Shown here one piece after another: positions 4,718 through 5,382 of a stretch of DNA of 64,000 nt. The stretch is taken from the NCBI GenBank assembly GCA_012747475.1, contig GCA_012747475.1_3928.1; one strand, written 5' to 3'. The notes beneath the pieces were generated by a model. It was not told the origin of the DNA and did not search any database. It saw nothing but the letters and a program-made list of their open reading frames with translations. This DNA is from a phage. The stretch's first letter is position 1. Every line of letters starts with the position of its first letter. The translations under genes were made by a program, and so were the position numbers.

Positions 4718-4799
4718 CGGGGCGTATCTCAGCGGTCTTCTAAACCGCCGTTAACCGAGTAAGTGGAGTATGCGGGTTCGAGTCCTGCCGCCTCGACCA
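4718..4799 (+). tRNA. tRNA-Arg-like (anticodon TCT), non-canonical D region
   Basis: Acceptor CGGGGCG/CGCCTCG, anticodon stem GCGGT/ACCGC with canonical loop CTTCTAA, T-arm GCGGG-TTCGAGT-CCTGC, A + CCA; no D-arm could be folded by hand. Confidence 0.4.
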
Positions 4800-4814
4800 A
4801 TTTTGGATGAAATC

Positions 4815-5162
4815 ATGAAAACTTGTCTTAAGTGTAAACTTAGCAAGGATGAAAATGATTTCTACATGAAAGATGGTAAGAGAACTCATTCATACTGTAA
4901 AAAGTGTGTTAATGAGCAAACCATAGAAAGACAAAGAGCACTTAAACTTTCAGCTATTGAGTACAAAGGTGGGGTTTGTCATGATTGTGGTAAAAGGTAT
5001 CATCCAGCAGTGTATGACTTCCATCATTTGAATCCTTCAGAGAAAGATTTTAGCATTGGTCATAGAAAGAGCCTTAAATTCTCTCAAGAGTTAAAGGACG
5101 AACTTGATAAATGTGTTTTGCTATGTTCAAATTGCCATAGGGTAAGACATGCAAAGTATTAG
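4815..5162 (+). CDS. HNH homing endonuclease
   Basis: Internal ATG of ORF 4770..5162 chosen so the CDS does not overlap the tRNA; zinc-finger cysteines (CLKC, CKKC, CHDC, CSNC) and HNH motif FHHLNP...N...H. Confidence 0.65.
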   Translation: MKTCLKCKLSKDENDFYMKDGKRTHSYCKKCVNEQTIERQRALKLSAIEYKGGVCHDCGKRYHPAVYDFHHLNPSEKDFSIGHRKSLKFSQELKDELDKCVLLCSNCHRVRHAKY

Positions 5163-5299
5163 TTAGCAGATTACTTAGACGGCCTTAGCGGGTCTTCCTG
5201 TAGGGAGGTGGTCTGTATCTCATGTTTTCCAGAACATGTAAATAATCTGAGAAGGGGCTTTACAGTGTTGCGAAAATACGGTAAGCTTCGAATTATAGT

Positions 5300-5382
5300 G
5301 TGGGACGATGTTAAGACTCTAAGGCATGAGCAACGGCCTCCAAAACCGTTTCAAAGGGGTTCAACTCCTCCGTCCCATGCCA
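5300..5382 (+). tRNA. tRNA-like, possibly Trp (CCA anticodon), atypical
   Basis: Acceptor GTGGGAC/GTCCCAT + G + CCA, T-loop TTCAACT; anticodon region AACGG-CCTCCAAAA-CCGTT gives a 9-nt loop containing CTCCAAA; D region over-long. Confidence 0.35.

Follow-up and report, generated by a model that had tools for sequence, protein, structure and literature searches.

The permuted transfer RNA (tRNA) genes of Cyanidioschyzon merolae are circular permutations that are processed through a circular intermediate, and their mature tRNA is canonical. The tRNA-like domain of transfer-messenger RNA (tmRNA) has a D-analogue located 5' of a long helix and has no anticodon. All known bacterial tRNAs are stated to be cloverleaves and natural arm-less tRNAs to be mitochondrial only (PMC11551756, 2024); an engineered D-arm-less tRNA was accepted by Escherichia coli HisRS, EF-Tu and the ribosome (PMC11551756). 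Other departures from the standard form include the (8/4) and (9/3) allo-tRNAs, with 8/4 tRNA-Ser/His reported in phages (Mukai et al., 2017; PMC5389517), and variants of tRNA-Trp(CCA) with altered decoding, namely the Hirsh G24A variant, A9C and forms whose anticodon stem has 4 base pairs (bp) (PMC13092985). Here we describe two genes in a stretch of 64,000 nucleotides (nt) of phage DNA (GenBank assembly GCA_012747475.1, contig GCA_012747475.1_3928.1; hereafter the window), an Arg-like tRNA gene at positions 4718–4799 and a Trp-like tRNA gene at 5300–5382. Neither architecture was found in the full-text literature, conserved sequence strings included, a search with incomplete coverage that leaves an earlier description possible, and reviews of non-canonical tRNAs mentioned no phage D-arm variants of the Arg-like kind.

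We consider it likely, with a probability of about 0.75, that both loci are expressed genes for working, structurally non-canonical elongator tRNAs which complete the decoding set of the phage. The basis is what was observed of sequence, conservation, covariation, distribution and codon demand, from which we infer transcription, processing, charging, use by the ribosome and the three-dimensional fold of both RNAs. The Arg-like gene appears to be rewired rather than truncated, the strands of its putative D stem flanking the anticodon arm. In similarity searches, positions 4440–5500 of the window shared 98.6% identity with Felix O1, a phage of Salmonella, and matches to this region among Felixounavirus records numbered in the hundreds; the window is that of a Felixounavirus of the Felix O1 type.

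Canonical tRNA-Arg(UCU), as encoded by phage Sf16 and by E. coli argU, has in common with the Arg-like gene the CUUCUAA loop, a 7-bp acceptor, a 5-bp T stem, the UUCGA loop and an encoded CCA, and the Arg-like D-loop analogue (AAUUGGAG) is similar to the D-loop of ordinary Arg tRNAs (A14, G18, G19, A20). The Arg-like gene differs from it in having no D hairpin before the anticodon arm, no ordinary variable loop and a conserved 7-nt bulge; the Sf16 gene occupies the same slot and serves the same presumed codon, but is unrelated in sequence. Metazoan mitochondrial D-arm-less tRNAs such as mt-tRNA-Ser(AGY), and the engineered 'mini HisT' (PMC7609411; PMC11551756), are similar to the Arg-like RNA in their short acceptor–anticodon connector and three-way junction. 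Whereas those RNAs have lost the D-loop/T-loop contact and are Y-shaped or flexible, the Arg-like RNA keeps a GG-containing D-loop analogue and a D-stem-like helix in a different order, and assignment to the mitochondrial-type D-arm-less class was rejected for this reason; its host system is also a different one, bacterial cytosolic translation. Like the tRNAs of C. merolae and those circularly permuted in vitro, the Arg family has reordered segments and a folded RNA predicted to be equivalent; unlike them, it has normal 5' and 3' ends, and what differs in the mature RNA would be the internal order of two core segments. The acceptor/T stack, a single-stranded D-loop analogue predicted to touch the T loop and the lack of a D hairpin are features common to the Arg-like RNA and tmRNA. 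With a 7/5 acceptor/T geometry the Arg family is unlike the (8/4) tRNAs.

Structure of the Arg-like RNA

The Arg-like gene (+ strand) consists of 79 nt followed by an encoded CCA. It was not called by ARAGORN on the window, while the Rfam tRNA model RF00005 matched it with 31.7 bits, above the gathering score of 29, in an alignment that reduced 15 D-arm positions to 4 nt and placed a 20-nt insertion before the T arm; the family model R1 gave 96.2 bits. Other Rfam matches in the region at E up to 10 were noise only (snoRNA, miRNA and tmRNA models). An earlier note on this DNA had recognised the acceptor, T arm, CCA and CUUCUAA loop, with which the sequence agrees, and had placed about 7 nt where the D-arm should be and about 22 nt before the T arm; we counted 7 and 23 nt. 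The acceptor 5' strand (4718–4724) pairs with 4789–4795 as CGGGGCG/CGCCUCG with one G-U, and the 3' segment (4789–4799) continues with discriminator A and CCA. The 7 nt between acceptor and anticodon stem, UAUCUCA, comprise the connector U8-A9-U10 (4725–4727) and the strand CUCA (4728–4731). The anticodon arm (4732–4748) has the 5-bp stem GCGGU/ACCGC and the loop CUUCUAA with anticodon UCU at 4739–4741. The following 23 nt are made up of a 7-nt bulge or linker, CGUUAAC (4749–4755), the strand CGAG (4756–4759) and a D-loop analogue, UAAGUGGAGUAU, with A14-, G18-, G19- and A20-like residues (4760–4771), which runs straight into the T arm (GCGGG-UUCGAGU-CCUGC, 4772–4788). CUCA and CGAG are the two strands of a nested D-stem-like helix with the pairs 4728-4759, 4729-4758 and 4730-4757, next to which there is a mismatch layer, the A.C of 4731 and 4756.

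IMG/VR was scanned with two patterns, one for either half of the Arg-type molecule, and the matches together with GenBank loci yielded 63 distinct Arg-type sequences, all exactly 79 nt long. Pairs were counted on the alignment of these sequences for a structure specified by the analyst. Standard pairs filled 94.4% of cells compared with 63.9% in shuffles, and 19 of 21 pairs changed on both sides, values reached by none of 500 shuffles; sliding the partners by 1–3 columns lowered pairing to 33–46%. Covariation was found in all four helices. Two-sided changes were seen in all seven acceptor pairs (98.9% of cells paired) and in three pairs of the T stem (98.7%), and the five pairs of the anticodon stem covaried. 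The nested helix corresponds to columns 11-42, 12-41 and 13-40, which were paired in 63/63 sequences using 2, 4 and 3 pair types, respectively (for 12-41: U-A 42, A-U 11, G-C 9, C-G 1), and 12-41 and 13-40 were reciprocal best mutual-information partners. A metagenome scan added 72 further distinct 79-nt members, giving a total of at least 135, and the nested helix was complementary in 72/72 of these through ten different strand combinations.

This 3-bp helix encloses the anticodon arm and is followed by the D-loop-like UAAnUGGAGUAU and then directly by the T arm. The description of the gene as lacking a foldable D-arm is thus right in that no D hairpin precedes the anticodon arm, but misses the covarying D-stem-like helix that flanks this arm and the GG-containing segment next to it. 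Pairing of columns 14-39 and 15-31 was mutually exclusive (45, 12, 2 and 4 sequences), so that the hairpin almost always has one non-Watson-Crick layer at its middle, like 26.44 in ordinary tRNA. The single strands were nearly invariant, comprising U8-A9-U10 (UAU in 63/63; UAU 66/72 and UAC 6/72 in the metagenome set), the 7-nt bulge with consensus C-R-U-Y-A-A-N (alignment columns C32, U34, A36 and A37 invariant) and UAAnUGGAGUAU. Ten of the 12 columns of the D-loop analogue were invariant and one more was 97% U; this segment lay outside the scan 1 pattern, yet was conserved among scan 1 matches. Two alternative hairpins, a variable arm CCG/UGG as drawn by RNAfold and a D hairpin within the 23-nt segment, were rejected, their columns being invariant or paired elsewhere. 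A subfamily with a 3-nt linker (L066:2689-2763 and several metagenome variants) indicates that the long GUUAA bulge is not topologically required.

We propose that the Arg-like RNA would form a three-way junction in which acceptor and T stems make the usual 12-bp stack (7+5). The second arm would be one long irregular hairpin composed of the 3-bp D-stem-like helix, the mismatch layer and the 5-bp anticodon stem, with the 7-nt bulge in its 3' strand, and from the top of this hairpin an 11–12-nt D-loop analogue with GG-A would reach across to the T stem. The strand that leads to the anticodon (U10–C13, A14 and the 5' strand of the anticodon stem) would be equivalent to canonical 22–25, 26 and 27–31, and the strand running away from it (the 3' strand of the stem, then 39–42) to canonical 39–43, 44 and 10–13. 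The next segment, A-A-Y-U-G-G-A, would provide the D-loop pattern A14, R15, Y16, Y17, G18, G19, A20. The anticodon branch would have about ten stacked layers, as in ordinary tRNA, and an L shape would still result from docking of the GG on the T loop. The segment order would be 1–9 / 22–43 / linker / 10–21 / 49–76, compared with the canonical 1–9 / 10–21 / 22–43 / 44–48 / 49–76, and we infer that the RNA is a strand-swapped equivalent of the normal core with segments 10–21 and 22–43 exchanged.

Identity and distribution of the Arg family

ARAGORN identified 25 ordinary tRNA genes on the + strand of the window (3048–8415), covering 19 amino acids. Trp was the sole amino acid without a tRNA, and Arg was represented only by ACG, no Arg-UCU isoacceptor being called. 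The Arg-like and Trp-like genes lie within this array and on the same strand, with an HNH open reading frame (ORF) between them. AGA was the commonest Arg codon in the ORFs of the window (41.5% of Arg codons; 17.4 per thousand codons), and it is a rare codon in enterobacterial hosts. The product of 4718–4799 would decode AGA/AGG.

Anticodons were UCU in 61, ACG in 1 and CCU in 1 of the 63 aligned sequences, and UCU 63, ACG 4, CCU 3, UCG 1 and ACU 1 in the metagenome set, that is UCU 124, ACG 5, CCU 4, UCG 1 and ACU 1 among 135 distinct members. A scaffold tied to Arg across three codon boxes fits identity elements outside the anticodon. The determinants of E. coli ArgRS are A20, C35 and U/G36. 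U33, C35, A37 and the GGA of the D-loop analogue were invariant (63/63), position 36 was U or G, and the Arg-like gene has C35, U36/G36 and an A after G18-G19 that is comparable to A20 at the level of sequence; host ArgRS would still read the A20-like base, C35 and U36/G36. The discriminator was G or A in 59/63 sequences and CCA was encoded after it in most members. The 7-bp acceptor, the 5-bp anticodon stem with a 7-nt loop and the 5-bp T stem with a UUCRA loop were all present and covarying. Arg-type genes are located within tRNA arrays of phages, and in most of these arrays theirs is the sole UCU tRNA. In two phages of the sister genus Mooglevirus, Sf16 and ESh22, exactly the Arg-like slot between conserved flanks is taken by a canonical tRNA-Arg(UCU) of unrelated sequence. 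The acceptance of an engineered D-arm-less tRNA by E. coli components (PMC11551756) makes function of the Arg-like tRNA plausible.

A similarity search with the 82-nt element as query matched 263 phage records, from Felixounavirus, Kolesnikvirus, Klebsiella and Serratia phages of about 110 kb, Asteriusvirus jumbo phages, the phi92 group, Vequintavirinae and one Vibrio phage. Most of these records left the gene unannotated and a few labelled it tRNA-OTHER or tRNA-Undet. Members 83–90% identical were found across unrelated phage families. Neither the Arg-like nor the Trp-like element had a match in 5,426 complete E. coli genomes, and among 185,579 species genomes the Arg family was found on four contigs only, all from metagenome-assembled genomes, so that the family is apparently phage-specific. 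A search of about 0.8 Mb of phage loci with model R1 found no swapped-type genes with a non-Arg anticodon and did not match the Trp-like gene.

Divergent swapped-type Arg tRNAs were seen at L066:2689-2763 (anticodon ACG, 3-nt linker) and L089:13348-13426 (UCU, longer D-loop analogue), on contigs that each also hold a standard member of the family. Among the metagenome loci (L162–L281), eleven sequences fell outside the fixed 79-nt register; these were mostly length variants, with at least one chance match, and in several of the length variants the linker was short and positions 8–10 read UAC rather than UAU.

The Trp-like gene

The Trp-like gene (5300–5382, + strand) is 83 nt in size including CCA. 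ARAGORN and RF00005 (E up to 10) reported nothing for it, and its sole Rfam match was to tRNA-Sec (RF01852) with 23 bits, compared with a threshold of 47. A tRNA-Sec identity was rejected on the basis of this score, the anticodon CCA instead of UCA and the short variable loop. The acceptor 5' strand (5300–5307) forms 7 bp with 5372–5378, or 8 bp if G5307-C5371 is included. It is followed by the connector GAUGUUAAGA (5307–5316), 10 nt where ordinary tRNAs have two (8 and 9), and by a D arm CUC / UAAGGCAU / GAG (5317–5330). The anticodon arm (5332–5350) has anticodon CCA at 5340–5342, the T arm (5355–5371) reads (A)GGGG-UUCAACU-CCUC(C), and the acceptor 3' strand, discriminator G and CCA occupy 5372–5382. 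The acceptor, T arm, CCA and 9-nt anticodon loop that had been read from the letters are real, the loop CCUCCAAAA being closed by the 5-bp helix AACGG/CCGUU. The D region, described as over-long, does span 26 nt between acceptor and anticodon helix; it nevertheless contains a D hairpin (3 bp and an 8-nt loop), and the excess is the invariant 10-nt connector.

The gene was found in 236 phage records, all from Ounavirinae or close relatives, which contained 13 distinct sequences spanning Felixounavirus, Mooglevirus, Suspvirus and Yersinia and Pectobacterium phages. Among these 13 sequences 94.6% of cells were paired and 8 pairs changed on both sides. Compensatory changes affected acceptor pairs 1-72 and 2-71 (A-U / U-A to G-C / C-G), the D stem (CUC/GAG to CAC/GUG; middle pair U-A 7, A-U 6, all cells paired), the anticodon helix (AACGG/CCGUU to GUAAG/CUUAC and GUAGG/CCUAC; 4 of 5 pairs changed on both sides, 100% paired) and T-stem pair 50-64 (G-C to U-A; 11 and 2 sequences). 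Pair 1-72 was A-U in 8/13, G.U in 3/13 and G-C in 2/13. The 49.65 A.C combination never pairs, while G8-C65 can pair in 13/13, without covariation at that pair, and RNAalifold returned an 8-bp acceptor and a 4-bp T stem for the family; an 8/4 acceptor/T geometry is probable on this model.

Anticodon CCA and G73 are the identity elements of tRNA-Trp. Both are present in the Trp-like gene in 13/13 sequences, as are the connector columns 8–17, the U-CCA-A of the 9-nt loop and the discriminator G with the CCA end; the variable region is 4–5 nt. A different gene of 71 nt with anticodon CCA fills the Trp slot in 23 related phages. This tRNA-Trp(CCA) allele (L002:1137-1207 in Escherichia phage VpaE1_ev78, and 22 other Ounavirinae) has a D region about 4 nt short and is annotated as tRNA-Trp, tRNA-OTHER or Pseudo; in L002 an additional HNH-like ORF follows it. 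In an IMG/VR pattern scan for Trp-like genes, most matches were fortuitous and lay in coding DNA; the genuine ones were all on contigs of Ounavirinae. We conclude that 5300–5382 is, to judge from these features, the putative tRNA-Trp of the phage, with an unusual hinge and anticodon loop.

Allo-tRNAs are similar to the Trp-like gene in the possible 8-bp acceptor and 4-bp T stem (12 bp in all), and some irregular allo-tRNA-like sequences have an extra loop between acceptor and D stems comparable to the connector. They differ in their long variable arm, SerRS identity and scattered anticodons, compared with the short variable loop, invariant CCA and G73 seen here. The tRNA-Trp variants of PMC13092985 have the CCA anticodon in common with the Trp-like gene, in which the 31.39 layer is unpaired and the loop is longer by 2 nt. 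A9C and G24A exert their effect at the 8-9/D-stem hinge, which is heavily altered in the Trp-like gene; nothing equivalent to the connector insertion is found in that study, which set aside an 'unpinned at the bottom' class (PMC13092985).

The two genes of the window have a motif in common (4750–4766 in the Arg-like and 5310–5325 in the Trp-like gene), consisting of GUUAA, 2 nt, a D-stem strand entering the D-loop, and UAAG..GG. The extra segment would in both cases sit at the junction of D stem and anticodon stem in the modelled folds. Common ancestry or common constraint may account for the motif; it could also be coincidental, since over part of its length the Trp sequence departs from the consensus of the Arg family.

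Neighbouring features

The ORF between the two genes (4815–5162, + strand) is a likely mobile element annotated as HNH endonuclease in Felix O1, with a weak match to Pfam HNH (16.7 bits; cut-off 21.4). HNH genes were also found directly downstream of the Arg-type gene in Felix O1, Klebsiella phage Roth37, Serratia phage Kamaji and others; besides the ORF in the window, examples are L005:1591-2100, L014:1584-2147, L042, L048, L077 and L159. In L030 a 339-amino-acid ORF with a ligase-like EKLDG motif, which may encode an RNA ligase, directly follows the Arg-type gene (955–1033).

Just past the tRNA-Ile gene and upstream of the Arg-like gene there is a sigma-70-like promoter match at 4456–4484 (TTGACA, 17 nt, TATAGT; 11/12), a consensus match only. 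The Felix O1 reference (L001) has about 89 bases more than the window near 4488, in the spacer after tRNA-Ile. An imperfect hairpin at 4649–4713, directly upstream of the tRNA-Arg slot, is conserved irrespective of the tRNA-Arg allele that comes next; in Mooglevirus Sf16 its pairing is retained by compensatory changes (GGGUA/UACCC to GAGCA/UGCUC). The region from the HNH stop codon to the Trp-like gene (5163–5299) is nearly invariant between Felixounavirus and Mooglevirus, folds with z = -3.0 (0/200 shuffles as good) and may be an uncharacterised structured RNA or processing element.

Other unusual genes were noted in other phage loci. Klebsiella phage Roth37 has an 85-nt tRNA-OTHER with a long insertion in the anticodon region (L005:113-197), unrelated to the Arg family. 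ARAGORN also reported 'tRNA-???' genes with two-base anticodons (L010:2135-2210, L011:1063-1137, L019, L022, L053 and L066), which suggest more atypical anticodon loops in these arrays.

Alternative explanations

Several observations weigh against the view that both genes encode working tRNAs of the proposed form. RNAalifold did not recover the 3-bp nested helix of the Arg family on energy; we accept the helix because of the pair counts, slide controls and mutual information, a support that is purely comparative. Single-sequence folding energies were unexceptional relative to shuffles (z = 0.04 for the Arg-like and -1.5 for the Trp-like gene), so that the claims must rest on comparative data. 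The family was gathered with patterns that fix parts of the conserved blocks, and their invariance is in part a consequence of this choice. In one member the Arg scaffold has the anticodon ACU (Ser codon box). Strict exclusion between an Arg-type gene and a canonical tRNA-Arg(UCU) does not hold either, L062 having both. The Trp family comprises only 13 variants from one subfamily, and its 9-nt anticodon loop and 10-nt connector might impair decoding.

A more far-reaching proposal, which we regard as doubtful, is that the Arg family is a permuted natural fold, with the halves of the D-arm exchanged round the anticodon arm, which is charged by host ArgRS and read by the bacterial ribosome and has spread since its rewired core, or the GUUAA insert that it has in common with the Trp gene, evades immunity of the host directed at tRNAs, or turnover. 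As a reason for the architecture, evasion of tRNA-targeting nucleases of the host or of tRNA turnover would be attractive. The altered hinge and 9-nt loop of the Trp gene might, as part of the same proposal, additionally relax decoding towards UGA. TGA was the stop codon in 12 of 58 ORFs and the next in-frame stop followed after a median of 3.5 codons, compared with 6 for TAA, values that are not clearly different.

We think it rather improbable that the RNAs are tRNA mimics that never deliver amino acids and serve instead as regulatory RNAs or as decoys or inhibitors of host tRNA-targeting defence nucleases or tRNA-modifying enzymes. Phage tRNAs are known from the literature to counter tRNA-cleaving defences, a decoy would also need the conserved anticodon loop, the unusual core and shared GUUAA segment could serve as a binding handle, and a ligase-like ORF lies directly downstream in L030. 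A decoy, however, would have no need of the conserved 7/5 acceptor–T stack, A/G discriminator and encoded CCA, nor does such a role fit the presence of Arg anticodons from three codon boxes in all but the one ACU member. The Arg-like gene also takes the place of a canonical tRNA-Arg(UCU) in the same slot and matches heavy AGA use, and the Trp-like gene provides for the one amino acid that the array otherwise lacks.

Selection might instead act mainly on the DNA, the rewired allele being a cleavage-resistant tRNA gene that travels with homing endonucleases and whose RNA is merely tolerated. At least two Pfam-confirmed HNH families (HNH; HNH_3 with NUMOD4), and a third HNH-like group identified by sequence only, lie immediately downstream of Arg-type genes in several lineages. 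The tRNA alone has been swapped as a cassette between sister genera, and the 83–90% identical members in unrelated families point the same way. Yet Sf16 has a homologous HNH gene beside its canonical tRNA-Arg, an ORF of at least 70 amino acids that begins in the first 120 nt downstream is lacking at about half of the loci, and endonucleases account for only part of the ORFs that are present. Covariation at the RNA level, moreover, is a sign of selection on the fold itself, and we consider this explanation improbable as a whole; homing-mediated spread and DNA-level selection are possible contributors to the odd architecture.

The earlier note had left open functional non-canonical tRNAs, tRNA-derived regulatory RNAs and pseudogenes, of which the first is favoured here and the last is strongly argued against by covariation. 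Decaying pseudogenes or recombination scars from homing-endonuclease traffic in the array might be suspected from the HNH genes adjoining both loci and from automated finders that miss the genes or label them OTHER, Undet or Pseudo, but decay would bring stem-breaking changes and indels, whereas at least 135 distinct Arg-type sequences from unrelated lineages keep 79 nt and paired helices through many compensatory changes, which the Trp type also has; this origin is very improbable. Hardly credible is a conventional cloverleaf in both genes after a shift of boundaries or register, suggested by the four arms of the Trp-like gene and the likeness of the Arg-like UAUCUCA to U8-A9, a D-stem 5' strand and A14, given that ARAGORN finds neither gene, RF00005 must delete the Arg-like D-arm, CUC has its partner strand 3' of the anticodon arm in 135/135 Arg-type sequences and the 10-nt connector and 9-nt loop of the Trp-like gene are invariant features. 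No such cloverleaf with shifted boundaries was found for either element, and the observation of two atypical tRNA-like genes in the earlier note is confirmed.

Implications

If both genes do encode working tRNAs, the Arg family would be a counter-example to the rule that bacterial tRNAs are cloverleaves only (PMC11551756). The family is large, apparently phage-specific and under clear selection, and its RNAs would have to be recognised by the ArgRS, EF-Tu, RNase P and ribosomes of bacteria in unmodified form. The sampled records mostly leave both genes unannotated or list them as OTHER or Undet, and published-style tallies of the tRNAs that a phage encodes ('Felix O1 lacks tRNA-Trp') would accordingly be wrong. 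The Arg family is a possible scaffold for orthogonal tRNAs and a lead on how phages protect their tRNA supply, and it would allow one to ask, on a natural example, to what extent translation really depends on the topology of the tRNA core.

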